A DNA stretch of 64,000 bases from Candidatus Uhrbacteria bacterium RIFOXYB12_FULL_58_10 (GTDB taxonomy: Bacteria > Patescibacteriota > Patescibacteriia > UBA9934 > GWF2-40-263). The stretch is taken from contig CALRHL010000001.1 of NCBI GenBank assembly GCA_943359455.1, positions 21,184-85,183 on the forward strand, given 5' to 3'. The notes under the pieces are model-generated. The model made no database searches. It was not told the DNA's origin and was given only the letters and a program-made list of their open reading frames with translations. The position numbers and the translations under genes were made by a program. Position 1 is the stretch's first letter. The number at the start of each line of letters is the position of its first letter. Shown here one piece after another: positions 7,057-26,227 of the stretch.

Positions 7057-8021
7057 TGAACCGTACCCCAAAAAGTGGACACGAAAGTGTCCGTTTTTTG
7101 TGTCTATAGATAATTCAACTAAGATGAATGGGTATGAGTAATCGAAGATTCACTGAAGAAGAGATGGAGGTGCTGTCACAACACATGTACGTGCGGAGAT
7201 GTAGCGAGAAATCTGTAACGTACACCAAGGAATTTAAACTGTTTGCCGTCAGGCAATACAACGAAGTATTTCTTCGAGGGAAGGCCAAATATGGTTGGAG
7301 GACGATTCAGATGAAACTTCTGGAAAAAGAGGTCGTCATGAATCACAAAAAGATCATTCGCATTAAGAATAAGTATCATCTCGTCACCAAGATCCGAAGG
7401 CACAACCCGTACAAGATGATTATGAAGAAATCGCTGGAACATCGTACGTATGAAAACATATTGAATCGTGCCTTTGACGTCCTTACTCCTTTCAAGATAT
7501 TTACCACCGACATCACCTATATCCCGCTCAATTACCGTTTTGCCTACCTGTCCGTCGTGAAGGATGTCGCAAGCGGCGAAGTCGTGGCCTGGAACCTGTC
7601 TATGCATCTGGAAATGAGCCTGGTGCTCGATACCGTGGAGGCTATGAAGAATAACCCGGTTCTCACTCCAGTCATGCTTCAAGACGTACTGATTCATTCC
7701 GACCAAGGTTTCCACTACACCAACCCGCTCTATATCGAGAAGATCAAAGGATTGCAGATGGTTCAATCTATGTCGAGACGTGGCAATTGCATCGACAATG
7801 CGCCTATTGAATCGTTCTTTGGACATCTAAAAGACGACGTGGACTACAAAGACTGCAAGACTTTCGACGAACTTCATTCACTCATCTCAAATTACATGCA
7901 ATACTACAACAATGAACGCCAGCAGTGGGGACGAAAAAAGATGACTCCTGTGGGATACAGAAATCATCTTTTAACAACTGCGTAGGTTTTTACCAGTGTC
8001 TACTTTACGGGGTACGGTTCA
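7057..8021 (+). mobile_element. IS3-family-like insertion sequence (~965 bp) with 26-bp imperfect terminal inverted repeats tgaaccgtaccccaaaaagtggacac / tgaaccgtaccccgtaaagtagacac; no clear target-site duplication
   Basis: terminal repeats read directly; encloses a single transposase ORF; left end carries hairpin plus T-run. Confidence 0.7.
7128..7985 (+). CDS. IS3-family transposase (HTH plus DDE/rve integrase core in a single ORF)
   Basis: HSDQGFHYT and SRRGNCIDNAPIESFFGHLK motifs of the IS3 OrfB integrase core. Confidence 0.85.
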   Translation: MGMSNRRFTEEEMEVLSQHMYVRRCSEKSVTYTKEFKLFAVRQYNEVFLRGKAKYGWRTIQMKLLEKEVVMNHKKIIRIKNKYHLVTKIRRHNPYKMIMKKSLEHRTYENILNRAFDVLTPFKIFTTDITYIPLNYRFAYLSVVKDVASGEVVAWNLSMHLEMSLVLDTVEAMKNNPVLTPVMLQDVLIHSDQGFHYTNPLYIEKIKGLQMVQSMSRRGNCIDNAPIESFFGHLKDDVDYKDCKTFDELHSLISNYMQYYNNERQQWGRKKMTPVGYRNHLLTTA

Positions 8022-8050
8022 TGACGGTCATTTTAATATTTTCACGGTTA

Positions 8051-9070
8051 TTACGGTGCCACGGGTGTTTTTGTTTTTGGTGGGGCGATTTTATAAACCA
8101 AAACGATTTCATTTTCAAATTCGGCTAGAGCAGGGTCACAGAATCCTCCTGTGCCTGGTGGCAAAATACTTTTTGTCAGATTACTAAAGGTGATTCCGTC
8201 CGATGAAAAGGCGCTGGTGATTCCTTGCTTGCATCCGTACATGTAAACACCATCATCGACGGCGAGTGCTCCAGGGACACCTCCTGTCGCGAGTGGAATG
8301 ATACCTTTATCGGAAAACAACAGTCCGTCATCGGACACAGCAACACCGCTCGACATTCCGACGGAGTAGTACATAATCCATTGCGACCCAAATGAGATGA
8401 CTTCTGGGTCTGTTAAATTTTCTACACTCAGACGAGTCCCTGCATCTGCTGTAAATGTAGCCCCGTCCAGAGAGGTCGCACTATAAACAAGATGTTCTTC
8501 TCCTTCTATCACAGGCCCACTTCCAAATGGTTTGTCTGGACCGTAATAATACATACGAACCGTACCATCTGAAAGTTGAACAACCGACGGATCCACTGCC
8601 GGACCTTTATTCACCTTTCCTATAACTGAAATCGGTTCACGGTCTGACCATGTTTTTCCTGAGTCTGTTGATCGTATGAAAGAAATGCCTTCCATGGAAT
8701 CCATCTCATTAAGTGGGTCAACAAAATAAATAAGAAATTCTCCTTTTTTACATGCAGATGAATCAACGCCACAAATCAACAGATCAGGAACAGACGCGCT
8801 TTCCGTCACGAGCGTTCCGGTAGGAAAAGACGTTGGATCGTTAGAAAAAGAAATGTATGTGTCATGATCTAAAATTCCCGCGCTCCCTGCATTTTGTGTC
8901 ATAGTTGGTGTTGACGGGACCATTGTTGGTGTAATCGTTTCAGAAATAGCTGTCTCAGTTTCTGTCTCGGTCTCAGATGACGTAGATGTCATTGTTTTCA
9001 CAAGAAATATAACACCTAGTGTCAATGCGACACCAAAACTTGTAAACAAAATTGACTTTGGGATAGACAT
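8051..9070 (-). CDS. secreted BNR/Asp-box repeat beta-propeller protein (sialidase/glycoside-hydrolase-like)
   Basis: start reset to MSIPKSILFTSFGVALTLGVIFLV (signal/TM); Asp-box-like STDSGKTWS; paralogous to 17268..18362. Confidence 0.55.
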   Translation of the reverse strand: MSIPKSILFTSFGVALTLGVIFLVKTMTSTSSETETETETAISETITPTMVPSTPTMTQNAGSAGILDHDTYISFSNDPTSFPTGTLVTESASVPDLLICGVDSSACKKGEFLIYFVDPLNEMDSMEGISFIRSTDSGKTWSDREPISVIGKVNKGPAVDPSVVQLSDGTVRMYYYGPDKPFGSGPVIEGEEHLVYSATSLDGATFTADAGTRLSVENLTDPEVISFGSQWIMYYSVGMSSGVAVSDDGLLFSDKGIIPLATGGVPGALAVDDGVYMYGCKQGITSAFSSDGITFSNLTKSILPPGTGGFCDPALAEFENEIVLVYKIAPPKTKTPVAP

Positions 9071-9140
9071 AAGATGGGATACTTTTTCATCATGTAAATT
9101 ATAGCACAAAAAAACGGCGCAGGGCCGTAGAGAAGAGCTG

Positions 9141-9923
9141 TTAGGCGTTGGAAAAGATTTTGAAAAACTGTTTCGTGTTGGCAATGTCGTCGTACTCCTG
9201 ATGATTAAACAGCGAGCCTTGGGCGGTTCCGGATTGCACGACGACGGAAGTATATTCGACTTCGTACGCACGGCTGAACCGCTGTGCGTTTTGCACTAAA
9301 CCTGGCATCTTGGCACGATCAGTAATCGACATGAGCACTCCTTTCAAAGTACGATCGCTTTTGATCTGCAGAACATGGCCAATGGACCAGTCTTTGGAAG
9401 GAACGATGAGGTCGACACTGAAATTTACATCTTCGTCGACTGTACTTTCCAAAACAGTGTAGTCTGCACAAAGAAGAGTCGTGACAACGTGAGCTTCTGC
9501 AAGCGAGCCAGCAATCGCAAGCTCGAAAAGTGGTTCGTTTGATGTGCGCGCGAGTACGAACAAATGTTCGAGATCTGACGGCTTCATTCCAACCATTCCA
9601 CGGACAAATTTTTTGATCCCTCCACAGTTATGGTACACATCGTCTTTTACGAAATGTGTTGTCGCGTGAGGAAGCAGATTGCGACGAGCGTATCCACACA
9701 AAAATGCACCTTGAAGCAAATAGCTCAATCCAACATCGGATGAATCGATCAAATCCTGTTGACCATCAAACAGCGATCCAACATAGGTACCGCCATGATG
9801 AAATGCTGTGAGAATCCGATTGAGGCTTTGCGCTGAACATCGATGAGGTTCAATAGGCAGATAGTGCTCAGTGTGATACGAAAGCGAATGAGCAAGTATA
9901 TGTTGTGCACGCAAAGGAAACAC
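9141..9923 (-). CDS. hypothetical protein
   Basis: ORF track only; no recognisable motif. Confidence 0.4.
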   Translation of the reverse strand: MFPLRAQHILAHSLSYHTEHYLPIEPHRCSAQSLNRILTAFHHGGTYVGSLFDGQQDLIDSSDVGLSYLLQGAFLCGYARRNLLPHATTHFVKDDVYHNCGGIKKFVRGMVGMKPSDLEHLFVLARTSNEPLFELAIAGSLAEAHVVTTLLCADYTVLESTVDEDVNFSVDLIVPSKDWSIGHVLQIKSDRTLKGVLMSITDRAKMPGLVQNAQRFSRAYEVEYTSVVVQSGTAQGSLFNHQEYDDIANTKQFFKIFSNA

Positions 9924-10057
9924 GTTTTCTCCTTGAAAAGACCGCGGTTCGAGGATTATTCAAGAGTCAGCCCTGGAGACGAATGGGCCAACAGCCACCA
10001 GAGAACCATCCCCGAACCACGGTTAAATGAGGATACAGGAAAATATCTGACTGGTCA

Positions 10058-11137
10058 ATGGACATGCTATACTACTTCCATATGCTTAGAACCCTCAATC
10101 AACACGAACAGATTGCACGCTGGTTTTTCCTATTGCTTGCCACGGGGGCGACGGTGCTGTTTTGGCAGGTGATTGCTCCGTACGCCATTACCCTGATTGC
10201 CGCGGCAATCGCAGCTGTTGTACTTTCTCCTCTTGAAGAACGAGTAAAGCGTGTGGTGAAACGACCGCATCTGTCGGCATTTATCATGATTGCGTTCATG
10301 CTTTTTCTTGTCCTTGGTCCTCTCGCGACCCTTGTGGCAGTGATGGTCGACCAAGCGCTCGAAATTGTCGCGTCCACGGTTGCAAACCCTGACTGGATCG
10401 CAAGTTTTCGTATTGATGAATTAACGCTCTTTCAGTTACTTCCAGAGTTTGTTCAAAAAGCGATTCTTGCTATTGACGTCGTTGGTGTCTTGCGAAACAT
10501 CGCGCAATGGGCGACTTCAAATCTTGGAGGATTTCTGCACGGCACAACCACATTTATCTTAAACACCTTCATCTTTTTTGTCTCCCTCTTTTATTTCCTT
10601 CTCGATCGCGAACGCATTGCCAAAGAAATGCTTGTACTCTCTCCACTGCGGGACTCAGTTGATCACGAAATCGCCCTGCGTATGGTCAATACGATTCGAG
10701 GTGTTATTTTCGGCTCTCTCATCGTCGCTTGTGTTCAAGGAATTCTCGCTGGTATCGGTCTCACCATTTTCGGTGTCCCAGGCGCCCTGCTTTGGGCTGC
10801 ACTCGTTATTATCGCCGCACAAATTCCAATGCTCGGCACTTCGCTCATTATGCTCCCGTGTGTCGGCTACCTGTTTTTCTCCGGCCACCCAACCGCCGCG
10901 CTTGGCCTGCTTATCTGGTCGTTTGTTCTCGTCTCCACGATCGATAATGTCCTCAAACCATACATCGTTGGAGGAAAAACCCGCATGCACAGCCTCCTCA
11001 TCCTCGTCTCGATGCTCGGAGGACTCGACACATTCGGCCCGATCGGATTTATTCTCGGCCCCACAATTCTCGCAGCATTTCTTGTGATGGTTGAATTGTA
11101 CAAAGCAGGGATTTTTGATAAGAATAATGTGGCATAG
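10058..11137 (+). CDS. AI-2E family (PerM-like) membrane transporter
   Basis: about 8 predicted TM helices; length and hydrophobicity pattern of the AI-2E family. Confidence 0.6.
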   Translation: MDMLYYFHMLRTLNQHEQIARWFFLLLATGATVLFWQVIAPYAITLIAAAIAAVVLSPLEERVKRVVKRPHLSAFIMIAFMLFLVLGPLATLVAVMVDQALEIVASTVANPDWIASFRIDELTLFQLLPEFVQKAILAIDVVGVLRNIAQWATSNLGGFLHGTTTFILNTFIFFVSLFYFLLDRERIAKEMLVLSPLRDSVDHEIALRMVNTIRGVIFGSLIVACVQGILAGIGLTIFGVPGALLWAALVIIAAQIPMLGTSLIMLPCVGYLFFSGHPTAALGLLIWSFVLVSTIDNVLKPYIVGGKTRMHSLLILVSMLGGLDTFGPIGFILGPTILAAFLVMVELYKAGIFDKNNVA

Positions 11138-11171
11138 ATATTTAACTCTCTAGAGACTTTTTTTCAATTCT

Positions 11172-13001
11172 ATGCTTCCACGAAAACCCGATTCCATGCG
11201 CGGACTCAATCCCGATCTACTTCCAGACCGCATGGACGCGAATCGGCATTCAAAAAAAGAAGGTCTGGATGGTGAGTGGACGGACCTCCAAAGGAAACGG
11301 AATGAAACCGCGCGTGAACTCGTTCATCTTCGACGTAACTATCTTACCGAGAATACAGAAATCGAACAGCGCATGGCTGAGTACAAAGAAACTCATCCGG
11401 AAATTTATGCGCTCATGAAAAATGTCCGAGATCGAGGACGTACGAACTACGAAGCGGCACACGCAAAGATCGCCGAGGTGTTGTATGCAGAACTGGAAGA
11501 CCAATACCAGGCCATCCCGCTTACTGCAGAAGAGATCGAGCGAGACTTGGACACAGAGCGTCTGAGCGTCATGCCGCTCAAGCAATACATTGAGCTTCTA
11601 CGCAAGCTCCCTCCGCGCTTTTTTACGCATGTCACTCGCCAAGGGGTTCGGGACAGCGGGTCGTTCCACTACGGAGGGATTGGAGAATTCCAACGCGGAT
11701 TCGACGAAATTCTCAAAAGTGGTTCTGTCGTCTCCGTCTATGACCGTGTTCTCGAAGATGGCATAACCCGCGCGACCGTCGGCGACCTTCTTAAGAGACT
11801 GAAGCTCACCCCAGAACACGAACCAGACAAGGCTGAGGCGCTCCGCAAGCTGGAATCTGAGCTCACGCGGTCCGACGTGGCTCCCATTTCGTCTTACTTC
11901 GCGGATATGAAATCGATCCATACAGCACTCGAGATGGTCGCGGACAGGAATTACGGTGGAGAAAATGGGAATGAAGTGTTTATGATCTGGCCAACCGCGC
12001 TTGTGGCAAAGGAATACCATGTCGGCACCCAACTCTTGGAAGTTCCTGACCAGTTTGATCCAGATGAAACGCATAAAAGTTCACAATTCAACGATTATTG
12101 GCTGCTACGCAAGGACGACAATACAGGAACTCTTCCGCTCGATGCCGGAATTACGTTCCTACCGGCCCGCGCCCAAGTTCACCCAGAAACAGGATCGCAG
12201 TATGAAACGACAGCAGAGGGAGATCCGATCCCAAACCCAGAAATCAAACTATTCGAAGAGCTTCTGCGATCGCAGAACTTTCAGAACATCTCCAATCAGC
12301 TCCGCGAATACATCGTTGCAAAGGAATCTGTTGCGAGATTCGACGAGAAAGCCGCGAAGGAAAAAGAGAGTTCTTCCTATTCTTCCCTGTACGTTCCAGA
12401 ATGGGAAAAACAGGAGCAACTGAGATACCAAAAAGAATTGGAAGCCGCAACACCTGCACGCATGGTATATGCCCAGCTCTGCGCGGAAGCTGGAATTACG
12501 AATCCACGAATTTTTTCAATCCCGGACCAAGGATTCTTGGCGCAACAACACCTCTCTACACTAGAATCACTCGCCATGCGCCCAACGCTAGACGAATATG
12601 CTAAACTCGATCGGCAAACGGCGCTTGGAAATCTTGGTATACGGTTTGCGCTCGCAAAGGAAACGATCTCTTCGCGAGACTATTGGGAAGACATGTTCAA
12701 ACGAACTGGAAAAAAGCCATCGAAAGTGATCTTCTACGACCAACGAGACCCAACCATGGCGCTCGACGCATTCAAACGCGTCGCAGGGATAGACCGTTCC
12801 TCATCCGAAATCGACCTCAAAAAACTCTACGAAGGAAACCTAATCGGACAGGACGGAATCAAGAACGTCCTGTCTCGCGAGTCCGAACTCGTTTGGCAGG
12901 TCGGCCAGGAGGTCATCGAGGAAATGTACGCTGCTCAGAAGCCAGTGGCGAAGCGTCGCAAAAAAAAGAGTCGCGATGACTCTAAGGTAAAACAGGAGTA
13001 G
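11172..13001 (+). CDS. hypothetical 609-aa cytoplasmic protein
   Basis: ORF track; charged, no TM, no recognisable domain. Confidence 0.5.
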   Translation: MLPRKPDSMRGLNPDLLPDRMDANRHSKKEGLDGEWTDLQRKRNETARELVHLRRNYLTENTEIEQRMAEYKETHPEIYALMKNVRDRGRTNYEAAHAKIAEVLYAELEDQYQAIPLTAEEIERDLDTERLSVMPLKQYIELLRKLPPRFFTHVTRQGVRDSGSFHYGGIGEFQRGFDEILKSGSVVSVYDRVLEDGITRATVGDLLKRLKLTPEHEPDKAEALRKLESELTRSDVAPISSYFADMKSIHTALEMVADRNYGGENGNEVFMIWPTALVAKEYHVGTQLLEVPDQFDPDETHKSSQFNDYWLLRKDDNTGTLPLDAGITFLPARAQVHPETGSQYETTAEGDPIPNPEIKLFEELLRSQNFQNISNQLREYIVAKESVARFDEKAAKEKESSSYSSLYVPEWEKQEQLRYQKELEAATPARMVYAQLCAEAGITNPRIFSIPDQGFLAQQHLSTLESLAMRPTLDEYAKLDRQTALGNLGIRFALAKETISSRDYWEDMFKRTGKKPSKVIFYDQRDPTMALDAFKRVAGIDRSSSEIDLKKLYEGNLIGQDGIKNVLSRESELVWQVGQEVIEEMYAAQKPVAKRRKKKSRDDSKVKQE

Positions 13002-13084
13002 ATTTGACGATCGTGATTTTATCACCAACCGTTAAGGTCATCAATACAAGCTATTCGGATGTTAGTGGAAAGTAGACCTGTTGC

Positions 13085-13112
13085 CAAATAAAAAATGAGC
13101 CGTGCACGGCTC
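13085..13112 (-). terminator. intrinsic terminator for the minus-strand gene ending at 13111
   Basis: perfect palindrome gagccgtgcacggctc followed on the minus strand by a U-run. Confidence 0.55.
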
Positions 13113-13725
13113 AAGAGGCGAGACGTTCGCCTGGGTGTTGTGGGTCGAAAAAGACGATTTGTTCACGTTTGCTCAAATCAACAAGATTATTGCAACTCCA
13201 CAAATCCTTCGAATCTGGACGCAACGGACCAATGCTTGGACCTGGGTAGAGAGTGCGGACAATTGCCCCAATTCCATTCGGCCATTTCTGGAACTGACAG
13301 GCGACCGTGATGATTTTTGTTTTCGGCGCGAGAACATGTGTGCACTCAGGACGAACCCGCAAACCATGACAGGTGAAATTCACCTGATACGGTTCAAGTG
13401 TATCGAAACGATGCTGGTAATTGGCAAGATCGTCTGTACAGGACCACCCAACAAATCCAGAGTATTCTACCTCGATGTAAAAGGCAGACGTGGATTTTTT
13501 GAGATCCACACCCTGCAAAACTCCCATGCATTCAAAGGCGAGTTTGTCGATGAATTCTTCGTCTTGAAACAGGTCGTTCAACGTTTCAAAACGACAGAAG
13601 TTTCCTGCTCGTCGAAGATCACGACCTCGAAAGCGCTCACGGGAGAGCCGCTGTTGTGCCCCATCACGTAGGCTGAATACGAGGTGGCAACGCATTTCCT
13701 TTGACCAGACACGCACATCATCCAT
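13111..13725 (-). CDS. hypothetical protein
   Basis: ORF track; chosen over the fully overlapping plus-strand ORF 13102..13671 because the terminator sits immediately after its stop. Confidence 0.45.
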   Translation of the reverse strand: MDDVRVWSKEMRCHLVFSLRDGAQQRLSRERFRGRDLRRAGNFCRFETLNDLFQDEEFIDKLAFECMGVLQGVDLKKSTSAFYIEVEYSGFVGWSCTDDLANYQHRFDTLEPYQVNFTCHGLRVRPECTHVLAPKTKIITVACQFQKWPNGIGAIVRTLYPGPSIGPLRPDSKDLWSCNNLVDLSKREQIVFFDPQHPGERLAS

Positions 13726-13749
13726 GACAACCTCCTGACGTGTGATATC

Positions 13750-14226
13750 ATGAAATCAAATATTAATCAAGAGTATATGCGTAGAATGATAGACGCGGGA
13801 AATATGATGGGAAGTGAACTAAATTCACGAGGCCGACAAATTCCTGAACGCGAGATTAAAATTACGTTTGCGGCATCAGGAGGACCTGGCGGCCAAAACG
13901 TGAATAAACTTGAAACAAAAGCTGTGTTTCGATGGAAGGTAAAAGATTCCACAGTGTTTACCGATGAGGAAAAAGACCGAATACGCGAAAAATTAGCAGT
14001 GAACAAAGAAGACGAGGTGAAGCTTGATTGCTCGGAGCACCGTACGCAACTTGCGAACAAGAAGGCGTGCTTTGAAAGACTACACGCAATGGTGAACGAG
14101 GCGATTGTGGTTCAGGAAGAACGGATCGATACGAAAAAGAGTAAAGGGGTACGTGCACGGGAGCTTGATTCGAAAACAAAAGATAAGCGTCAGAAGCAGC
14201 TTCGCCGAAGGGTTGATTCAGATTAG
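13750..14226 (+). CDS. arfB: alternative ribosome-rescue factor ArfB (peptidyl-tRNA hydrolase, GGQ domain)
   Basis: FAASGGPGGQNVNK GGQ motif; short RF-1-domain protein with basic C-terminal tail. Confidence 0.75.
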   Translation: MKSNINQEYMRRMIDAGNMMGSELNSRGRQIPEREIKITFAASGGPGGQNVNKLETKAVFRWKVKDSTVFTDEEKDRIREKLAVNKEDEVKLDCSEHRTQLANKKACFERLHAMVNEAIVVQEERIDTKKSKGVRARELDSKTKDKRQKQLRRRVDSD

Positions 14227-14250
14227 GTTTTCACGTAGGGTAAGCTCGAT

Positions 14251-15333
14251 ATGAGAATACTAGGAATTGAATCGAGCTGTGATGAAACGGCGATCGCTGT
14301 TGTGGAAGGCCGGGAGGCCGGGAGGAAATTCCTCCAGGCCTTACGCCTTAAGCCTTATGGCCTAAATGTTCTCACAAACCTCGTAGCTTCACAGGCGGCT
14401 TTGCATGCGAAGTATGGAGGGGTCGTGCCCGAGGTTGCGGCGCGGGAGCATGTGGATGTGATTTTTCCATTACTGATTGAATCGGGAATTGCGCGGGATG
14501 GTTCAGAGATTGATGCGATCGCTGTCACCGCCGGGCCAGGTTTGGTGCCGGCTTTGCGCGTTGGAGTGGAGCTCGCAAAGTCGCTTGCATGGGTTTGGAA
14601 GAAACCGCTTGTGGCGGTGAATCATTTGGAAGGACATTTGTATTCTGTACTGTTACAAGAAGGGTCCGAAAAACTTGAGTTTCCTGCTCTTGCTCTTCTC
14701 GTTTCCGGTGGCCACACGGAACTGATTCTGATGACAGATCATGGCCAGTACGAACGAATTGGTGCAACGCGGGATGATGCAGCTGGAGAAGCGTTTGATA
14801 AAGTGGCAAAGTTGTTAGGACTTGGATATCCGGGTGGACCAGCTGTCTCGAAAATGGCGCTGACGGGAAACCCGGAAGCGATCGCGTTTCCGCGACCGAT
14901 GATCGAAAGTGGAAATTTCGATTTTAGTTTTTCTGGACTGAAGACGGCGGTTGCTGTCTACGTGAAAGGCCGAGCGGCTGCAGGCCGTTCGACGGCCTTA
15001 GGCTTAAGGCTTAAGGAAGATGGAATAACAGACATCTGCGCCTCTTTCCAAGCAGCAGTTGTTGAGACGCTTGTTACAAAAACAATCCGCGCCGTCGAAA
15101 AATTTCATCCAAAATCTGTCATCCTTGCTGGCGGAGTGGCTGCAAATAAGTCATTGCGTGAATCACTTGCACATGCGCTTCAAAAAGATTTGACTCTTCT
15201 TGTTCCTGACCTTTCTCTCACTGGCGACAATGCGGCTATGATCGCGGCGGCCGGGTATTTTCATGCGCTTCGAAACGACTTTGTAGATCCACTCACGTTG
15301 GTTGCAAACCCAAATTGGAAGCTTGCGAAATAA
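14251..15333 (+). CDS. tsaD: tRNA N6-adenosine threonylcarbamoyltransferase TsaD
   Basis: MRILGIESSCDETAIAVV...HAKYGGVVPE...GPGLVPALRVG...LLVSGGHTEL; carries two short in-frame insertions made of a dispersed repeat. Confidence 0.9.
   Translation: MRILGIESSCDETAIAVVEGREAGRKFLQALRLKPYGLNVLTNLVASQAALHAKYGGVVPEVAAREHVDVIFPLLIESGIARDGSEIDAIAVTAGPGLVPALRVGVELAKSLAWVWKKPLVAVNHLEGHLYSVLLQEGSEKLEFPALALLVSGGHTELILMTDHGQYERIGATRDDAAGEAFDKVAKLLGLGYPGGPAVSKMALTGNPEAIAFPRPMIESGNFDFSFSGLKTAVAVYVKGRAAAGRSTALGLRLKEDGITDICASFQAAVVETLVTKTIRAVEKFHPKSVILAGGVAANKSLRESLAHALQKDLTLLVPDLSLTGDNAAMIAAAGYFHALRNDFVDPLTLVANPNWKLAK
14337..14365. repeat. AGGCTTAAGGC-like short repeat copy 1, in-frame inside tsaD; preceded by tandem ccgggagg x2
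   Basis: ggccttacgccttaagccttatggcctaa read directly. Confidence 0.5.
14994..15016. repeat. AGGCTTAAGGC-like short repeat copy 2, in-frame inside tsaD
   Basis: ggccttaggcttaaggcttaagg. Confidence 0.5.
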
Positions 15334-15339
15334 ACAGGT

Positions 15340-15777
15340 ATGAATTATTTTTCATCTTCAACGGAACAGACAAAAAAAATTGCTGCTGATTTTGCCACAA
15401 CCCTCAGCGGTGGTGAATGTATTATGCTCCAAGGTGAACTTGGATCTGGCAAAACAACATTTGTACAAGGTGTCTGTGAAGCACTTGGTGTCAAAGAACA
15501 TGTCACAAGCCCCACATTCGCCATTATGAACATTTACCATCTACCAAAACTGCCAACACCAGGTGTTGGCAAGAAAGTCGTGCACCTAGATCTGTATCGA
15601 CTCAAAACAGTCGCAGAAATTGCAGCACTTGGGCTTGAAGAGTACATGGGGCAAACCGACACGATTATGCTCGTCGAATGGCCAGATATGGTCGATGGGA
15701 TTGACTGGAAACCAACTTACACAATCACATTTACATCAACAAACGAAAACGAGCGTATCATTTCCATATCTCCCTAG
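15340..15777 (+). CDS. tsaE: tRNA threonylcarbamoyladenosine biosynthesis ATPase TsaE
   Basis: P-loop GELGSGKTTFVQG; size and position downstream of tsaD. Confidence 0.85.
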   Translation: MNYFSSSTEQTKKIAADFATTLSGGECIMLQGELGSGKTTFVQGVCEALGVKEHVTSPTFAIMNIYHLPKLPTPGVGKKVVHLDLYRLKTVAEIAALGLEEYMGQTDTIMLVEWPDMVDGIDWKPTYTITFTSTNENERIISISP

Positions 15778-15783
15778 TGTGCC

Positions 15784-16659
15784 TTGTCACGATCATTTTC
15801 TTCCTGTAAGCTCGCGATCATGAACAAACGTTTCCTCACTCATCTGCTTGTACTAACTATCGGCTTTCTTTCGCCGCATACTCTTATCGCTAGAACATTT
15901 TCTCCCGCCGCTGGGACAGATGAGTATCTTGTTGAGATTGGATATACGGAAGAACAACTTTCAACCGAAGCATCAACCGAAAATCGTGAGGCATTTTCTA
16001 TGGCGGAAGGAGAAGGTCGTGTTGAGGATCCGCTTGGGGATGTGGTCAACCGGTTTGGAACAACGTCATCCATGAAACAACCGTGGGGAGATATTGAGCG
16101 CGCGGTGATCCAAAAAAATTCTGAGACAAGTACGTGGGATGTCATTGTGACACTCGGTGGAATTGTCCCAGAAAAATCATCGATCAGTGCGCAGTTATTT
16201 GTGTTGTTGGATACCGATGGTGACAAATCGAATAACGACCGCGACGGATTTCGTATTGGGACCGATGCAGAGTTTAGTCTGCAAACAACATCAGAACACC
16301 CATGGTATGTTGACTACCGCTGGTATAATCCAGATCCACAGTTTTGGGCAGTAAATAAAGAGACGATGTCGAGCTATGAAATCGACGGAAACACAATCAC
16401 GATGCACATTCCTTTTTCAGAAGCACCAGAGTCACTCACTCCACATTGGCGTGTGGTTATGGGACTGGCAGATGGAGCAGAGAATCAGATCGACGCTGTA
16501 CCAGGAACTGGGTTCCCTCCACCAAAAGGTGAAACCTATCCATCTGATTCAAAAGTGGCTGCGTCACTTTCTCTTGGCTGGATCACTTGGGGAATCATCG
16601 GAATCATCGTTGGTTACGGTGGATATTCTGCATTTGCCAAGAAACGAAAAATAGGATAG
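15784..16659 (+). CDS. hypothetical secreted protein with N-terminal signal and C-terminal TM anchor
   Basis: hydrophobic N-terminus and C-terminal LGWITWGIIGIIVGYGGYSAFAKKRK. Confidence 0.5.
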   Translation: MSRSFSSCKLAIMNKRFLTHLLVLTIGFLSPHTLIARTFSPAAGTDEYLVEIGYTEEQLSTEASTENREAFSMAEGEGRVEDPLGDVVNRFGTTSSMKQPWGDIERAVIQKNSETSTWDVIVTLGGIVPEKSSISAQLFVLLDTDGDKSNNDRDGFRIGTDAEFSLQTTSEHPWYVDYRWYNPDPQFWAVNKETMSSYEIDGNTITMHIPFSEAPESLTPHWRVVMGLADGAENQIDAVPGTGFPPPKGETYPSDSKVAASLSLGWITWGIIGIIVGYGGYSAFAKKRKIG

Positions 16660-16672
16660 TCTTTTGTCGCAT

Positions 16673-16747
16673 GCGGGTATCGTATAACGGTTATTATCTC
16701 AGTTTTCCAAACTGATGAAGCGGGTTCGACCCCCGCTACCCGCTCCA
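16673..16747 (+). tRNA. tRNA-Gly(TCC)
   Basis: cloverleaf folded by hand: acceptor GCGGGTA/TACCCGC, anticodon stem TCAGT/ACTGA, loop TTTCCAA, T-loop TTCGACC, encoded CCA. Confidence 0.8.
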
Positions 16748-16811
16748 TGCACCATGTGAGGTGCATGGCAAGCCATGTAGGAAAGCGTGTTGGGAGGCAT
16801 GTAGCAAGGCA

Positions 16812-16840
16812 TTGACAATTACTACTAAAGATGATATTAT
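16812..16840 (+). promoter_or_regulatory. near-consensus sigma70 promoter TTGACA-17-TATTAT upstream of the zinc-ribbon gene
   Basis: hexamers and 17-nt spacer read directly. Confidence 0.55.
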
Positions 16841-16922
16841 TTCTCGCGTTGAAAGCCTCTGGAAGCTCACGATGTAAATCGCGTTCTTCCTATGGGTCTT
16901 TGACCCTGGATTAACAAAGATT

Positions 16923-16962
16923 CATACGTTGCTTTACGCGCGTATGAGATAAGCAACGTATG
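16923..16962 (+). promoter_or_regulatory. 12-bp-stem hairpin in the 5'UTR that sequesters the ATG of the zinc-ribbon gene; its loop contains the palindrome tacgcgcgta
   Basis: catacgttgctt ... aagcaacgtATG are exact reverse complements. Confidence 0.35.
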
Positions 16963-17229
16963 CCAGACATCAATCTCGTCTGTCGCGATTGCGGAAAAGA
17001 ATTCGTCTTTTCCGAACGCGACCAAGCGTTCTTTTCCGAAAAAGGCTGGGCTAACCAACCAACTCGTTGCCGCGACTGCGCACGCCAAAAGCGTGATCGC
17101 ATGGACGCTCCACGTCAAATGTTTGACGCGGTGTGTGCGGACTGTGGCGCCAACTGCCAAGTTCCATTCCAGCCACGCGGTGACCGTCCGGTCAAATGCC
17201 TCGCCTGCTTCAAAGCAGGACAAGCATAA
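16960..17229 (+). CDS. double CxxC zinc-ribbon protein (zf-trcl-like family)
   Basis: CRDCGKEFVFSERDQAFFSEKGWANQPTRCRDC and CADCGANCQVPFQPRGDRPVKCLAC pattern. Confidence 0.7.
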   Translation: MPDINLVCRDCGKEFVFSERDQAFFSEKGWANQPTRCRDCARQKRDRMDAPRQMFDAVCADCGANCQVPFQPRGDRPVKCLACFKAGQA

Positions 17230-17233
17230 AAAT

Positions 17234-17268
17234 AAAACAGTCCGACTTCTCGTCGGACTGTTTTATTT
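17234..17268. terminator. bidirectional intrinsic terminator
   Basis: aaaacagtccgac-ttctc-gtcggactgtttt with flanking A/T runs. Confidence 0.6.
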
Positions 17269-18362
17269 TATTCAGCAGTTGTTGCACTATACAAGTTTTG
17301 AATACTATCTGCGTCTGATGCTGCAGGAGCTCCTACTCCACCTGTAACGTAGATGCGGAAGCGACCATCCGTCAACTCAATAATTTGTGGATCATACAGT
17401 CCTGTCAGATTTTCCCCTGAAAATTCTGCTGGCAACAAAACGTCAGATTGTTTTGTCCAAGAAACTCCATCATCAGAACTCACAAGTGTGTACACTTTTC
17501 CAGACTGCATTGCCACCATGAGCACTCGACCATCCTCTAGCACCAAAACTTTATCATCCACAAAACTTTTCGCTCCACCACCTGCATTCAAATCTCCAAG
17601 TGGATTATCGTCAGTGAACACAAATGTCCATCCACCATCTTCAGAATATGCTCGTCGCACATTATTCGAGCCTTTCAAATCACCCAGATACATCATCACA
17701 ACCCCACCTTTAGAATCAAGGAAGAAGTCATAAACTCCCATGCTTCCATTATCTGATTCTACAAGTTCATAGCGAACTCCAGGGTCATCTGTAAATGTTA
17801 TACAGTCTTTAGAACTCTTACTTTTAAGCCCAGTTGAACCTGGAAGCACGCCGCTCTTTGTTGCATCCAATCCATACGCACGGCACGTTCCATCAGCCAA
17901 TTTTATCGCGCGAAACTCTGCTGGGTTCACTCCAGTATCTGTCACGGTAAAATCGAGCCAGTCTGACGAGATGGATGCTGTTGCAACGTCGTTTCTCCCA
18001 CGCGACTCGTTGGCACGCGATTGAAATAGCATGGAAATCGCTCCATCAGAATTAAATTTCACACCTGAATTCGAAGCATTTTCCAGCCGAATCCCATCGT
18101 CAGCAATAAAGCTAAATTCGTCCGTAGATGTCGTCGTTGTTGTCGTCGTTTCATCTGTCGTTGAGGTGCCTGTGCAATCCGCCGGACACAACGTCGCATC
18201 TGCGAGTTCTGCAGCATCACACACTCCATCACCACATGGTTGAGAAGATGTAGAAGTTGACGTTGGTTTTACATCCGTGATTTCTGTATCAGACGATGAA
18301 CAACCAATTCCAACAAGCGTAAAAAGACACAAAAGGGTAAAAAAGGATTTTTTAGCAAACAT
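17268..18362 (-). CDS. lipoprotein with BNR/Asp-box beta-propeller domain (sialidase/glycosidase-like)
   Basis: lipobox LVGIGC; Thr-rich linker; Asp-boxes SEDGGWTF and SSDDGVSWT. Confidence 0.55.
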   Translation of the reverse strand: MFAKKSFFTLLCLFTLVGIGCSSSDTEITDVKPTSTSTSSQPCGDGVCDAAELADATLCPADCTGTSTTDETTTTTTTSTDEFSFIADDGIRLENASNSGVKFNSDGAISMLFQSRANESRGRNDVATASISSDWLDFTVTDTGVNPAEFRAIKLADGTCRAYGLDATKSGVLPGSTGLKSKSSKDCITFTDDPGVRYELVESDNGSMGVYDFFLDSKGGVVMMYLGDLKGSNNVRRAYSEDGGWTFVFTDDNPLGDLNAGGGAKSFVDDKVLVLEDGRVLMVAMQSGKVYTLVSSDDGVSWTKQSDVLLPAEFSGENLTGLYDPQIIELTDGRFRIYVTGGVGAPAASDADSIQNLYSATTAE

Positions 18363-18403
18363 AGATTACCATCATTTAATTAACATGAATAAATAGTATC
18401 ATA

Positions 18404-18883
18404 CTACCAACGCATCGTAGACGCCGTAATCGCAATCGCGAGTGCATCTGCTGCATCATCAGGTTTTGGAGCGCGAGGCAGATTCAAAAGCTTTGCGACC
18501 ATTTTTTGCATCGCTGCTTTTCCAGCATCTCCTGCGCCAGTGATTGCTTTTTTTACCTGTGCAGGACCAACTTCAACAACGGGAACTCCTGCTTGAGCAG
18601 CGAGAAGCAAAACGACTCCACGTGCTTCTGCAACACGTATGGCTGTCGTAGAATTATTTGCAAAAAAAAGTTTTTCTACGGCAACCAAATCTGGTTTTAC
18701 ATGTTTCAAAATTTCATTCAGATCATGCGCAAGATGCAATAAACGATCTTCCGGTGCATCTCCTGGGGTTGTTGTCATCACACCAAAATCGACCGCTTGC
18801 ATTTCCTTCCCTGCAACATGAATACACCCGAACCCCATTCGACCATAGCCTGGATCAATTCCGAGAATAAACAATTCACGCAT
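18404..18883 (-). CDS. ruvC: Holliday junction resolvase RuvC
   Basis: ILGIDPGYGRMGFGCI...AVEKLFF... RuvC signature. Confidence 0.9.
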   Translation of the reverse strand: MRELFILGIDPGYGRMGFGCIHVAGKEMQAVDFGVMTTTPGDAPEDRLLHLAHDLNEILKHVKPDLVAVEKLFFANNSTTAIRVAEARGVVLLLAAQAGVPVVEVGPAQVKKAITGAGDAGKAAMQKMVAKLLNLPRAPKPDDAADALAIAITASTMRW

Positions 18884-18919
18884 ACGGTGAGGAATTCCTT
18901 ACTTTTTACATTTTACTTT

Positions 18920-19606
18920 TTACACTTCATTCGTATAAACCGCGTCGACGTCATCCAAATCTTCCATGATTTCCAAAAATGTCTGAAGCTCTACACTCTT
19001 CGCTACGTCAATATCCGTCGTTGTTTTCGCAATGTAGGCAATCTGTGCCCCGTCGATCTTACCCGCCGCTGCCGCAACCTTTTGCAAATCTTTCACGTCA
19101 CACACGGCCTCAAACATCCCATCAATGGTCTGCATGATATCCTCTGCGCCAGCCTCGATGAGCGCCATCTCATCGACAGACGCTGAACGAACAATCCCCT
19201 TCTTCTCAAACATCCACATCACAGATCCGCTCACTCCAATCACCCCGCCATTCTTCGTCGCAGCTGTTTTCACCTCTGCAACAGAACGATTACGATTGTC
19301 CGTCAGGCATACGACAAGCATTGCAACACCACCAGGCGCGAAACCCTCATACACAACCTCCTCGATCACACCATCTTCTCCGGTTCCTGATCCCCGCGCA
19401 ATCGCTCGGTCAATATTCTCTTTTGGTACCGACGCTCCTTTTGCTGCATCCACTGCCATGCGGAGCTTAAAATTAAACGCGACATCTCCACCCTCCCGAG
19501 CCGCCAGGGTAATATTCTTCACCAATTTCGAAAACACCCCTGCGCGTCTCGCATCTGCCTTTCCTTTTTTCAGTTGAATGTTGTGCCAATGAGAATGCCG
19601 CGCCAT
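18920..19606 (-). CDS. yebC: YebC/PmpR-family transcriptional regulator
   Basis: MARHSHWHNIQLKKGKADARRAGVFSKL... start reset to MARHSHW. Confidence 0.9.
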   Translation of the reverse strand: MARHSHWHNIQLKKGKADARRAGVFSKLVKNITLAAREGGDVAFNFKLRMAVDAAKGASVPKENIDRAIARGSGTGEDGVIEEVVYEGFAPGGVAMLVVCLTDNRNRSVAEVKTAATKNGGVIGVSGSVMWMFEKKGIVRSASVDEMALIEAGAEDIMQTIDGMFEAVCDVKDLQKVAAAAGKIDGAQIAYIAKTTTDIDVAKSVELQTFLEIMEDLDDVDAVYTNEV

Positions 19607-19622
19607 ACTACCACCACATAGA

Positions 19623-19982
19623 TTACACCTCTGACCGAAGTTCAAGACCGCGGATTCCTTTAAAATCCTTCGTATTTCTAGTGACTAATGGAAAACCGCA
19701 TTCAATGGCTGTTCCCGCAATTAATAAATCAACAACCCGACCACGTTTTGTTCGTGCAATCTTTGCAGCTCGATCTGCAATTACTTCTGTAATCGGAATC
19801 ACATCACAAGATCGTATTAACAATAAAAGAAGGGCCTCCTCATCTTTTGATAAACCAGGATATCGTAATGCCTCAAAAACCGATAAAGCAGAAATGGCAA
19901 CGGAACCAGGAATAAACGAAAATGCTGGCATTGCCGCAATGTGCAAGATTAAAATATTTGTATCAACGAGAACGCGCGTCAT
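19623..19982 (-). CDS. vapC: PIN-domain toxin VapC
   Basis: VLVDTNIL ... TRNTKDF acidic PIN motifs; 4-nt overlap with the upstream small gene. Confidence 0.7.
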   Translation of the reverse strand: MTRVLVDTNILILHIAAMPAFSFIPGSVAISALSVFEALRYPGLSKDEEALLLLLIRSCDVIPITEVIADRAAKIARTKRGRVVDLLIAGTAIECGFPLVTRNTKDFKGIRGLELRSEV

Positions 19983-20176
19983 ACTGACTTCCAAGAACCC
20001 CGTGAACGTTCTATTGCACGCAAAAGAACAAATGCTCGTTGTTTCGAAATCTTTCCTGCGGTCTCAGACCATACATCACGAGACGTTCGCTTTGAGCGGT
20101 TAGATACCACGTGTTGATGCAAACCAATCATTTGTTCTAATTTTGTGACCCTTTGTTCAAGTATTTTTACAGTCAT
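19979..20176 (-). CDS. putative antitoxin (VapB-position small protein, family unclear)
   Basis: 65 aa, ATGA overlap with vapC; no recognisable RHH/AbrB fold. Confidence 0.4.
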   Translation of the reverse strand: MTVKILEQRVTKLEQMIGLHQHVVSNRSKRTSRDVWSETAGKISKQRAFVLLRAIERSRGSWKSV

Positions 20177-20223
20177 ATATCTATATAATACCAAATCGAA
20201 TCCTCTTGTCGAGTCATCGTTGT

Positions 20224-20676
20224 TTAACCCAGGCTAAAATATTTCTGTAGAATCGCTCGGTATATCTCTCCACGACTGACCATCCCAACGAGTTTATTTT
20301 CTTCAAGAACAGGAACTTGGTGAATTCCACTTGCGACCATGAGTGCTCCTATCTTCAAAACAAGAGTATCAGGCGTTGTAGTAAGAACACGCTTTTCCAT
20401 GAGCAATTCGATTGCTCGGTCCGCGACATCTGTTGCGGATTGTTCAATGTCATTGAAGTCGGTGTAAGACTCTGGGTGTGTAATCCAATGTTTATAGGAT
20501 GGATACAGACCACGAAACAGATCTTTTTCTGAAAGAATACCAACAAGCACCCCCGCCCCATCAACAACTGGCACCGCGGACAGATGATTCTCCAGCAAAA
20601 ACCCAGCAGCCTCACGCCAAGTGGTCGAGGTCAACAGCGTCACTATCCCTTCACGCATGACATCACGAACCATCAT
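20224..20676 (-). CDS. CBS-domain pair protein
   Basis: two CBS-like segments (AVPVVDGAGVLVGILSEKDL ... IHQVPVLEENKLVGMVSRGEI). Confidence 0.75.
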   Translation of the reverse strand: MMVRDVMREGIVTLLTSTTWREAAGFLLENHLSAVPVVDGAGVLVGILSEKDLFRGLYPSYKHWITHPESYTDFNDIEQSATDVADRAIELLMEKRVLTTTPDTLVLKIGALMVASGIHQVPVLEENKLVGMVSRGEIYRAILQKYFSLG

Positions 20677-20755
20677 ATGTCTCTATCAGACCACTTTTTG
20701 AAGACGATGTAAAGAGGGATTCGCCTCCGTTTTTTATCAAAAAATCCCACCAGAA

Positions 20756-21316
20756 TTACTCCGGTGGGTAGTGGATGTCGAGGGCGTGGATAGCTTTCGT
20801 GTATGCTTGGTTGAACTGTTCAACGAGATACGGACTCACGCTGCTGCATGCGTCTGCGACGACTTTGGCTCCGAGCAAATAGTCGGAGAATTTTTGTCGC
20901 GTCCAACCCGTGGGTGGATCGGTGACGCAGGAGCGGACGTTTGAAGTGCTGTCCGCGTGTTTGCAACGCTTGACGCCGTCGCATTCAAATGACAAGCGTT
21001 CCGCCTGACGGAGCTTGCGCTTGAGTGTCGGGGTCCCTTTCCACTCGGGAGGATCTGTCAGACCATCTACCAGACGTGCAACTTCGGTTCCGAAGTACGC
21101 TCCGATCTCGCCAAGCGTTGTCAAAGTGTCTTCGAGCACATCGTGCAAATACCCGGCAGCAATCTCCTCCGCACTTCCTCCTGACTGCTCGATGAGCTCT
21201 GCAACTTCAGTCAAATGCACCGAGTATGGCTGGCAAGCACGGTTTGGCCGAACCAACCCCTCATGTCGCGAAAACGCAAATTCTCGAGCGGCACTGATCA
21301 GTTCTGTTCCAGTCAT
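20756..21316 (-). CDS. HD-domain phosphohydrolase (small SpoT/RelA-hydrolase-like)
   Basis: HD signature ...AAGYLHDVLEDT... Confidence 0.65.
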   Translation of the reverse strand: MTGTELISAAREFAFSRHEGLVRPNRACQPYSVHLTEVAELIEQSGGSAEEIAAGYLHDVLEDTLTTLGEIGAYFGTEVARLVDGLTDPPEWKGTPTLKRKLRQAERLSFECDGVKRCKHADSTSNVRSCVTDPPTGWTRQKFSDYLLGAKVVADACSSVSPYLVEQFNQAYTKAIHALDIHYPPE

Positions 21317-21440
21317 ACAAGCTCCTCAGGGTGGTGCGAACGATATCACTGACGAGGAAAAAAATCAAAAAAATACGCTCCCGCTAAATTCTATCGGGAG
21401 CCACTTAGCCTGACCGTCCGAGAAACAAAAGGAGCTCATT

Positions 21441-21603
21441 AGACCTGTTGCTGTATAAGCTCCAGCCAAAAACGTCATATTTCGCCAAACTCTCGGTAAA
21501 ATATTTTTGGCTTAGCTTAGGCTAAACAAAAAATATTTTACCGTCGACTTTGTCTGAAATCTGCCATTTTGGATCAAGGATCTTATACAGCAACAGATCT
21601 ATT
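21441..21603. repeat. ~160-bp element with 23-bp imperfect terminal inverted repeats (agacctgttgctgtataagctcc / ggatcttatacagcaacagatct), an internal 14-bp inverted repeat (ggtaaaatattttt/aaaaatattttacc) and a possible 3-bp ATT flanking duplication
   Basis: read directly; overlaps the 3' end of hicA. Confidence 0.4.
21509..21525. repeat. AGGCTTAAGGC-like repeat copy (ggcttagcttaggctaa) in the loop of the element above
   Basis: read directly. Confidence 0.3.
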
Positions 21604-21801
21604 TTTCGTCACACCAAGTATCCGTAAATTATTCAAAATGATAAACGGCGGTAGTGGGTCGTACTGAGGGACAACAAGGGGTCGTTTCAAACCGGCCTTG
21701 ATGTAAATACGATGGTCGCCCTTCATTCGTCTGAATGAGCACCCGTGTTCAATCAAAAATTTTTCAAAAATTCGCCAATCAACCGCGCCCAAATCTCCCA
21801 T
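21583..21801 (-). CDS. hicA: HicA-family mRNA interferase toxin
   Basis: RRMKGDHRIYIKAGLKRPLVVPQYDPLPPFIILNNLRILGV resembles the YcfA/HicA KGSH motif region. Confidence 0.65.
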   Translation of the reverse strand: MGDLGAVDWRIFEKFLIEHGCSFRRMKGDHRIYIKAGLKRPLVVPQYDPLPPFIILNNLRILGVTKNRSVAV

Positions 21802-21807
21802 AATATT

Positions 21808-22095
21808 TTAAGCCGTACATGGCACCATCACATTCACAACAGCCTGCTCAACGACTTCTGGAGGACTGAATTGCCCTTTTGCCTTCGTCCATCCCAGATC
21901 TTTGAGGACTGCATCTATACTATTCGTTTCCATCAACTCTTCAAAAAAAATCTGTACCGCTTCGCCAAACATTCTCTTGGCGTCTTGTTCTGATGACCCG
22001 CATGAAGATAAATCTAATGCTGGGGAGTATGCAACAAATGCCACTCCTTCGCGAAAAATGGTGACGGGAAGACCGCAAGAAATCGATTGATCCAT
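21808..22095 (-). CDS. hicB: HicB-family antitoxin
   Basis: PVTIFREGVAFVAYSPALDLSSCGSSEQDAKRMFGEAVQIFFEEL matches the UPF0150/HicB fold pattern; immediately upstream of hicA. Confidence 0.6.
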   Translation of the reverse strand: MDQSISCGLPVTIFREGVAFVAYSPALDLSSCGSSEQDAKRMFGEAVQIFFEELMETNSIDAVLKDLGWTKAKGQFSPPEVVEQAVVNVMVPCTA

Positions 22096-22143
22096 ATTAC
22101 GGTGACTTTACCAAATTCGCTGATATTTTTCAATAGTAACGTT

Positions 22144-22303: not shown

Positions 22304-26227
<3,924 letters not shown>

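Follow-up and report, generated by a model that had tools for sequence, protein, structure and literature searches.

Why should an essential gene carry, at two separate places and in frame, copies of a short repeat that also lies between two other genes? This question is raised by tsaD, the gene for the tRNA t6A37 threonylcarbamoyltransferase, in a 64,000 nucleotide (nt) long stretch of DNA from Candidatus Uhrbacteria bacterium RIFOXYB12_FULL_58_10, here called the window. A reading made from the sequence alone had described copies of one repeat within tsaD (14337..14365 and 14994..15016), at the end of rpsF (48200..48229) and at 21509..21525, and had likened them to Rickettsia palindromic elements (RPEs). 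Here we show that the GGCTTAA/GCCTTAA motif constitutes a real, lineage-specific family of very short structured repeats, which form tandem arrays of 2.5-4 units. Two copies are translated parts of the essential TsaD protein, and one copy is intergenic at a conserved position.

A family of short heptamer arrays

Tandem Repeats Finder, applied to the whole 64-kb window, reported period-7 arrays at 14338-14357, 15000-15016 and 48202-48227, with 2.4-3.7 copies of the unit each. These arrays correspond to copies A, B and C (Table 1), i.e. to three of the four places named by the sequence-only reading. All three match a single degenerate pattern of 19 nt, TWAGGCTTAAGGCNTWAGG, for which ~7e-6 matches are expected in 64 kb. 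The core 10-mer, allowing at most one mismatch, is matched 6 times in the window compared to 1.3 expected matches, a count that was reached by none of 100 shuffles. Pairwise, the copies are 87-94% similar over 17-23 nt, and copies A and B are mutually inverted (17 nt, 94% complementary, 644 nt apart). A strict lag-7 scan revealed no general excess of period-7 repeats in the window, such that the signal is specific to GGCTTAA-type sequence.

The heptamer unit is nearly palindromic (GCCTTAAGGC) and both of its orientations encode L-R-L-K. For this reason copies A and B, in both of which a similar LRLK peptide had been noticed before, encode LRLK despite their opposite orientation, and they do so within an intact open reading frame (ORF). 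A GC-rich GGCC/GGAGG module adjoins the heptamers in two of the three copies (A and C). In addition, local alignment revealed an exact 13-mer, GGAGGCCGGGAGG, which lies beside the heptamers at the first tsaD site and, as its reverse complement, in the rpsF-ssb spacer of a sister species (GCA_964471375.1).

The fourth proposed copy, at 21509-21525, is not a member of the family: it has a period of 6 and forms the tip of a different, AT-rich hairpin with 23-nt arms at 21494-21543. This hairpin is itself nested in 24-nt inverted repeats (21440-63, 21578-601). The resulting 162-nt structure at 21440-21601 resembles a MITE (a miniature transposable element with inverted repeats) and abuts the 3' end of a gene for a HicA toxin. 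Survival of CTTAAG, as an avoided restriction site, only within the repeats was considered as well and rejected: the site is seen 6 times against 17.6 expected from independent bases, and the Markov expectation of 4.0 shows that there is no depletion.

How far does the family extend? The surroundings of 80 other tsaD genes of Patescibacteria, 839 kb in total, contained no GGCTTAA array (at most 2 mismatches in 17). Nor do the loci of the three orthologues nearest to the window gene (21 kb, 11 kb and 3.6 kb) hold a heptamer array besides a degenerate copy at the first site of orthologue P0005. The heptamer family is thus lineage-specific. Beyond these loci, 596 Gb of genome collections were scanned, for which ~70 single chance matches are expected, so that only genomes with several copies are informative. 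Among the matches listed, GGCTTAA arrays occur in some genomes of Bacteroidota, Planctomycetota, Nitrospirota and Gemmatimonadota. Of the 123 arrays listed from other phyla 101 have at least 4 units, the longest listed comprising 27; 28% have an inverted arm nearby, and their sequence varies gradually from unit to unit. Such arrays in unrelated phyla fit the published scattered spread of heptameric repeats (PMC4692102, PMC4679880). A phage origin was considered too: a scan of viral contigs gave 9 matches, which by a rough estimate is close to chance and uninformative.

Two copies in surface loops of TsaD

The window TsaD retains the columns H125, H129 and D326, which are invariant in the orthologue alignment, and the protein therefore looks functional. 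Solved TsaD chains (Salmonella/E. coli, Thermotoga), which align end to end, lack 16 residues at site 1 and 11-13 residues at site 2, in agreement with the extra peptide segments suspected at both copies. Both segments are missing from nearly all of ~120 TsaD orthologues. An alignment of orthologues had been suggested as a check, and it supports lineage-specific segments: among 44 close Patescibacteria orthologues the site-2 segment is present in none, while at site 1 a similar segment (LSALGLKPCGL) exists in P0005 and only its tail (EPRGL) in P0003. The orthologue closest to the window protein, P0002 (85% identity, ungapped columns), is its sister on a neighbour-joining tree, which carries no bootstrap support values, and is devoid of both inserts.

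Mapping onto a structure, the second check that had been suggested, gave a consistent picture. The AlphaFold2 model of the window protein has a mean predicted local distance difference test score (pLDDT) of 91.8 and low confidence only at the two inserts; elsewhere it is at least 85, including a slight decrease near residues 131-140 (mean of this block 85). Site 1 (residues 21-40, pLDDT 58-70) lies in the turn between strands 12-20 and 38-47. Site 2 (residues 241-260, pLDDT 66-72, below 50 at 248-250) connects helices 228-243 and 256-285. Both tsaD copies are hence translated within structurally permissive surface loops and add ~13 residues each.

An assembly artefact at tsaD was rejected, since the DNA is identical across both repeats in at least 3 independent assemblies. 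The identical protein is found on 8 contigs, and the assemblies with identical DNA come from the same population and include the metagenome-assembled genome GCA_943354615.1. The identical loci that were compared cover the tsaD repeats, none of them extending to copy C.

Table 1. Positions of the repeat copies and of the genes and structures associated with them (window coordinates unless a locus is named).
Feature	Position	Strand	Description
tsaD (tRNA t6A37 threonylcarbamoyltransferase)	14251..15333	+	intact ORF, 360 amino acids; precomputed Pfam TsaD PF00814; PDB TsaD chains, E ~1e-78
Site-1 in-frame segment	14305..14364	+	codons 19-38 (EGREAGRKFLQALRLKPYGL); ~13 residues longer than sister orthologue
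Site-1 imperfect hairpin, 44 nt	14306..14349	+	AAGGC.G.GAGGCC.GGAGGA-AAT-TCCTCC.GGCCTT.C.GCCTT
Tandem 8-mer AGGCCGGG x2.4	14307..14325	+	left arm of site-1 hairpin, contains GGAGGCCGGGAGG; Tandem Repeats Finder
Copy A	14338..14365	-	+ strand: GCCTTAC GCCTTAA GCCTTAT GGCCTAA; translation A-L-R-L-K-P-Y-G-L
Site-2 in-frame insertion	14980..15018	+	13 codons, 244-256 (AGRSTALGLRLKE); codon alignment with 3 orthologues
Copy B	14994..15017	+	GGCCTTA GGCTTAA GGCTTAA GG
ssb	47712..48185	-	Pfam SSB, 1.6e-37
Copy C	48202..48228	+	GGCTTTA GGCTTAA GGCATTA GGCTAG
rpsF	48226..48735	-	Pfam Ribosomal_S6, 5.9e-26
Composite palindrome, second repeat family	61430..61529		intergenic; AACCACCCC..CCCCTCCTTgaaAAGGAGGGG..; inverted repeats I2, I3
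FGSRIISLDVRDKGNQ hairpin	L157:920-985, L189:1021-1086, L166:4822-4887, L174:2016-2081, L207:10799-10864		

The gene before tsaD encodes an RF-1 domain, and tsaE follows at 15340..15777.

Hairpins, duplicated arms and stop codons

Site 1 contains an imperfect hairpin. Its DNA fold amounts to -18.7 kcal/mol (z = -3.56), and none of 200 shuffles folded as well. The tandem ccgggagg pair that had been noticed before the first copy was recovered here as the 8-mer that makes up the left arm. The outer stem can be followed through three sequences: in P0003 it is a perfect 12-bp stem with a 5-nt loop (AAGCCCGCGAGG / CCTCGCGGGCTT), in P0005 it includes two G-T pairs (AAGGCCGTGAGG / CCTTGCGGCCTT), and in the window it reads AAGGCCGGGAGG / CCTTATGGCCTA. 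One double change from C-G to G-C separates P0003 from P0005 and the window. As the hairpin is common to two orthologues at an identity of only ~76-80%, it is old or recurrent rather than the product of a fresh transposition. Its interior in the window resembles duplicated arms, with the 8-mer repeated 2.4 times on the left and a 7-mer repeated 4 times on the right.

At site 2 a weak hairpin (14961-14995) precedes the heptamers and pairs the start of the insert with conserved upstream codons (z = -2.86; 2 of 200 shuffles as good). Copy C has no local hairpin (z = -0.7). On a larger scale, folding of the complete tsaD mRNA at minimum energy is predicted to join copies A and B (14346-14364 with 14999-15016) in an 18-bp duplex of -35 kcal/mol, and the ensemble is expected to contain 8.8 of 17 pairs.

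Translation imposes a constraint on these arrays. A perfect (GGCTTAA)n repeat of at least 3 units puts a TAA into every reading frame on either strand. Within tsaD the repeats can thus persist only as variants without TAA: the third unit of copy A has TAT at the position where the perfect unit would give an in-frame TAA, and copy B ends one codon short of the TAA that a perfect repeat would provide.

A conserved array between rpsF and ssb

Copy C occupies the 40-nt spacer between rpsF and ssb (48186-48225). As the sequence-only reading had proposed, it overlaps the end of rpsF, its first unit providing the stop codon. In mRNA sense the copy reads TAG CCTAATG CCTTAAG CCTAAAG CCTCC, and the spacer as a whole TAG CCTAATG CCTTAAG CCTAAAG CCTCCGGCTCAC. 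The sister species (locus L143; SSB 92% identical) carries TAG CCTTAAG CCTAATA CCTTAAG CCTCCCGGCCTCC at the same place, with the units rearranged. In a more distant relative (L145) the spacer still measures 40 nt with a period of 7, with other units. A spacer of 39-40 nt with period 7 is thus seen in three species (window 48186-48225; L143:1938-1976; L145:9961-10000), while the sequence of the unit drifts. It might serve as a conserved signal for translation or processing just 5' of the ssb start codon.

Similar positions are found in Ca. Uhrbacteria ELA555, where the heptamer forms both arms of two hairpins that start at or just past the stop codons of rplK and of a methyltransferase gene (fold z = -4.3 and -2.4, respectively). 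Outside tsaD the heptamer arrays, i.e. those in the rpsF-ssb spacers of the window and the sister species and in the two ELA555 hairpins, are intergenic and start at or just past a stop codon.

Other hairpin inserts in TsaD of Patescibacteria

Inserts in TsaD are not confined to the GGCTTAA repeats. Among 76 complete TsaD genes 22 carry a total of 31 inserts of at least 8 amino acids, which cluster at five loop positions (after residues 26, 84, 140, 205 and 246 of the window protein). A fold z below -2 was obtained for 48% of the inserts compared to 12% of control segments from the protein core (Fisher p = 5e-5). TsaD of Patescibacteria is thus a hot spot for hairpin inserts. At the shared loops the inserts of other lineages are unrelated in sequence to the GGCTTAA element.

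Several of these inserts are pronounced palindromes. The tsaD gene P0073 (Ca. Uhrbacteria GCA_001791305.1; L132:10352-10507) holds a 140-nt in-frame hairpin of -69 kcal/mol with 8-nt-periodic arms (GAGTGANN), and its motif occurs a second time between genes at a distance of 9 kb (L132:19832-19941). P0011 carries a 75-nt in-frame hairpin of -54 kcal/mol at site 2. This insert is homologous to the intergenic composite palindrome of the window (Table 1), with a local alignment score of 59 compared to 17.4 +/- 3.2 (maximum 29) for shuffles. The palindrome consists of two CCCCTCCTT-NNN-AAGGAGGGG mini-hairpins in inverted order between the flanks AACCACCCC/GGGGTGGTT. The SPLLPQGGVGGGP inserts of P0004 and P0006, judged on their peptide alone, may belong to the same family. 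The clade therefore holds other palindromic families that occur both in intergenic regions and in frame within TsaD.

A further coding hairpin, FGSRIISLDVRDKGNQ, is found at site 2 in another Patescibacteria lineage. It comprises 66 nt in frame and 24 bp, which are 98% paired across five orthologues. Nine pairs are altered on both sides, a result that none of 500 shuffles reached, and slid controls were at most 49% paired. In all five sequences the sense strand folds ~4-7 kcal/mol better than the antisense strand. Locus L179 carries this hairpin with an additional insert nested in it. Eight other loci (L160, L161, L190, L196, L202, L206, L221, L224) have an insert of 32-45 amino acids after residue 84 with a conserved ILEREP[DE]LF-like ending; since most of these are not hairpins, they look like a genuine protein segment and not a repeat.

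One may ask whether Patescibacteria systematically carry protein-coding hairpins, such that unrelated small palindromic or short-period families repeatedly enter a few TsaD loops (and probably other core proteins) while the stems are kept by compensatory evolution. We consider this possible, though on balance doubtful. If true, it would imply either a mechanism of structure-specific insertion or copying that targets these loops, or a function of the hairpins in mRNA or single-stranded DNA. The GGCTTAA element would then be the smallest example, its inverted copies A and B being able to clamp the tsaD mRNA.

Origin of the repeats

How did the heptamers reach their places? We cautiously incline to the view that they spread by template switching during replication combined with slippage. 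Copies would be spread by replication-based copying and not by transposase-mediated insertion: template switching at hairpins or at microhomology would move them, slipped-strand duplication of 7-8-nt units would lengthen the arrays, and the copies in tsaD would be tolerated passengers. The duplicated arms at site 1 and the fold-back of site 2 onto flanking codons argue for this mode. No transposase was found among the Pfam-annotated genes, which cover positions 1..25333 of the window, ~8.7 kb upstream of it and four further proteins, with ~1/3 of the window annotated.

A number of observations weigh against such a spreading element. The codon alignment shows no target-site duplications flanking either tsaD insert, no terminal inverted repeats were seen at the heptamer copies, and no pair of empty and filled sites was seen between close strains, so that direction and mechanism of the copying are inferred. 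A clear hairpin is present at one of the three copies (site 1), with site 2 and copy C being unconvincing. Part of site 1 resembles a local duplication of hairpin arms, which counts against an element of the MITE or RPE type, and the GAAGGCCGGGAGG stretch may be old coding sequence instead of a part of the element. The copy number is low: ~73 kb of the source genome contain 3 copies, and no further one was found in the ~9 kb upstream of the window (L128), while the loci retrieved at the right end fall within the window and thus extend it no further. P0005 and P0003 bear the site-1 hairpin (in full and in part, respectively) yet are not the closest relatives on the neighbour-joining tree, so that site 1 needs several losses or a recurrent gain. 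On this tree without support values, a single ancestral insertion at site 1 would be possible only with several losses. Finally, slippage by itself can produce heptamer repeats, and among the matches listed there are GGCTTAA arrays from many unrelated phyla.

The last point leads to the main rival of template switching and slippage, namely a purely local origin. Here slipped-strand mispairing and quasi-palindrome correction would have acted at each locus on existing GGCC/AAGG-rich sequence without any copying between loci, and the shared unit would reflect a mutational bias. The site-1 stem of P0003 is already a perfect palindrome of 12 bp, and in the window gene (P0001) the hairpin interior resembles duplicated arms. 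The rpsF-ssb spacer, which keeps its 40 nt and its period in three species while the units drift, and the arrays listed from other phyla, which change unit by unit, speak for this origin as well. Moreover, heptameric simple repeats are over-represented in many bacteria, for which polymerase slippage has been proposed (PMC4692102, PMC4679880). However, three loci share one 19-nt degenerate pattern in a window that has no general excess of period 7, and tsaD site 1 shares the additional 13-mer with the spacer of the sister species. Furthermore, no orthologue offers a comparable precursor for site 2, and the 839 kb of related genomes contain no array. We therefore regard a purely local origin as rather unlikely.

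Alternatively, the hairpins could be selected as functional nucleic-acid structures: as mRNA elements for the translation or stability of tsaD, as single-stranded DNA hairpins recognized by a protein, or as the A-B duplex, which would close a 650-nt mRNA domain. The compensatory C-G to G-C change and the changes preserving G-U pairs in the site-1 outer stem of three orthologues are consistent with this idea, as are the nine doubly changed pairs and the more stable sense strand of the 98% paired FGSRIISLDVRDKGNQ hairpin, and the predicted pairing of copies A and B. The structures are dispensable, however, since the nearest orthologue and most others do without them, and copy C forms no hairpin. 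The covariation can also be explained by template switching that corrects palindromes or by independent insertions of diverged palindromic copies, and long-range fold predictions within translated regions are unreliable. Selection for a nucleic-acid structure is thus improbable.

The inserts might also be protein-level adaptations: GRKFLQALRLKPYG and GRSTALGLRLKE, basic peptides rich in Leu, would have been favoured as extensions of two TsaD loops, e.g. for the binding of tRNA or a partner, the DNA repeat being incidental. Each insert has a net basic charge and includes LRLK in spite of the opposite orientation of the arrays, the unit variant CGC in place of AGC in copy A yields Arg, and elsewhere in the clade the same loops have repeatedly received insertions. 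LRLK results, however, from the near-palindromic unit itself; P0005 has ALGLKP without Arg, both segments are low-confidence loops, the inserts of other lineages at these loops are unrelated in sequence, and the same DNA occurs in the non-coding rpsF-ssb spacer. Among the biological alternatives this one is the least supported, and we consider it very improbable. Chance similarity or an assembly or sequencing artefact, which the short low-complexity motifs and the MAG-derived (metagenome-assembled) sequence might suggest, is practically negligible given the ~7e-6 expected matches, the tsaD repeats identical in at least 3 independent assemblies, the intact reading frame with retained catalytic residues and the array in the same spacer of the sister species.

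Further repeats in the window

The window contains additional repeats. A third small family (7057-7110, 7994-8021, 22212-22267) consists of near-perfect hairpins of the form TGAACCGTACCCCAAAAA(N)GGACAC...GTGTCC...GGGGTACGGTTCA. The ORF 7128..7985 is flanked by the first two, ~25 nt ahead of it and 10 nt behind it, and the third lies ~40 nt downstream of the stop codon of rpoC (22304..26275); they look like terminators. Positions 36471-36512 and 49686-49727 form a 42-nt inverted pair (TCCTTTACTTATTCCCTGAGCGAAGCAAAGCGAAGTCGAAGG), 83% complementary and 13 kb apart, which may be another dispersed repeat. Just downstream of recA, a 21-nt tandem repeat (x6.3, 39388-39519) encodes the heptads GEITGIK within the 117-amino-acid ORF 39244..39597 (- strand), the product of which has the look of a small coiled-coil protein. 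There are 7 occurrences of the HIP1-like palindrome GCGATCGC compared to 0.7 expected ones (12266, 14290, 14515, 14878, 25619, 50233, 56022); three of these copies are within tsaD, at Ala-Ile-Ala codons. CGATCG is found 51 times compared to 13 expected.

Comparison with known repeat systems

In comparison to MITEs (~100-400 bp) the inserts are far too small, and neither terminal inverted repeats nor a flanking target-site duplication were seen. With repetitive extragenic palindromes (REPs) and REPINs (PMC3733652, PMC3116915) they share the character of dispersed, imperfect palindromes of 20-40 nt, often located at gene 3' ends, in which strand-specific G-T pairs are tolerated. They differ from these in that two copies are intragenic and that the copy number is low in the sequence seen. 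Neither the hairpin 14306-14349 nor copy B or copy C carries a GTAG or CGTC REP tag at its ends, and no gene for a RAYT (Y1 transposase) is found among the Pfam-annotated genes (~1/3 of the window). The cyanobacterial SDR repeats that Elhai and colleagues reportedly described in 2008 are said to measure 21-27 nt and to be seemingly inserted into conserved sequence, including genes and heptamer arrays, without encoding an enzyme. By this description they are of similar size (~20-30 nt), while sequences and lineage are unrelated.

Coding palindromes are known from the mitochondrial genes of Nematomorpha, where inverted repeats of up to 284 bp are reported to lie inside protein-coding genes with both arms translated (PMC6649704). 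These are, however, organellar, much longer and, as far as described there, not heptamer-based. The closest parallel in bacteria are RPEs (Ogata et al. 2000), which later reports describe as stem-loops of 105-146 bp with ~12-bp terminal inverted repeats known from Rickettsia and Wolbachia (PMC2229807, PMC3184786). Judged by these descriptions, the likeness to RPEs that had been proposed from the sequence holds in part. As with RPEs, small repeats occur both between genes (one in the rpsF-ssb spacer) and in frame within genes for conserved functional proteins (two in tsaD); they are palindromic, here at site 1, are tolerated in surface regions, and several families of coding palindromes exist within one clade. 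Membership in the RPE family is what has to be given up. The inserts measure 39 nt (site 2) and ~39-51 nt (site 1), consist of tandem 7-8-nt units at which no terminal repeats were seen, are few, reside in a Patescibacteria host and show a clear hairpin in one of three copies. Since they lack the defining size of RPEs and show their architecture in part at best, the heptamer repeats act like RPEs in their consequences and are not members of that family.

Until now coding palindromes have been regarded as peculiar to Rickettsia and Wolbachia, and a comparable outcome is now seen in bacteria of the Candidate Phyla Radiation; the literature searched contained no description of in-frame palindromic repeats in this group. 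As these genomes are also reduced, and as the elements are only ~40 nt long and built of heptamer units, it may be common to small genomes in general that essential genes are colonized in frame by structured repeats of small size. Such inserts are a concrete source of the differences in length among conserved proteins of these bacteria, and they can mislead orthologue alignments, gene models and phylogenies based on metagenome-assembled genomes. TsaD loops with and without inserts, together with the covarying coding hairpins, allow a direct test of a neutral, an RNA- or DNA-structural or an adaptive role.

The nearest relatives in composition are dispersed heptanucleotide repeats, such as the STRR of the cyanobacterium Calothrix, the heptameric simple repeats of Xanthomonas and Nostoc (PMC4692102), and the TAACTGA repeats of Beggiatoaceae, Cyanobacteria and Bacteroidetes (PMC4679880). 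Common features are the head-to-tail 7-nt unit, its recurrence at several loci (three in 64 kb, plus the sister species) and the scattered phylogeny. Heptanucleotide repeats are mostly intergenic, often overlap the upstream stop codon and lie just 5' of a start codon, a type that is represented here by copy C. Their units contain stop codons, as does the unit here, and arrays within ORFs are accordingly rare and peripheral among them. What differs is the unit itself, the location of two of three copies inside an essential enzyme and the association of one of them with a hairpin. By composition the GGCTTAA element thus belongs with the dispersed heptanucleotide repeats such as STRR and TAACTGA, of which it is an atypical member, given the shortness of its arrays and their location in an essential gene.

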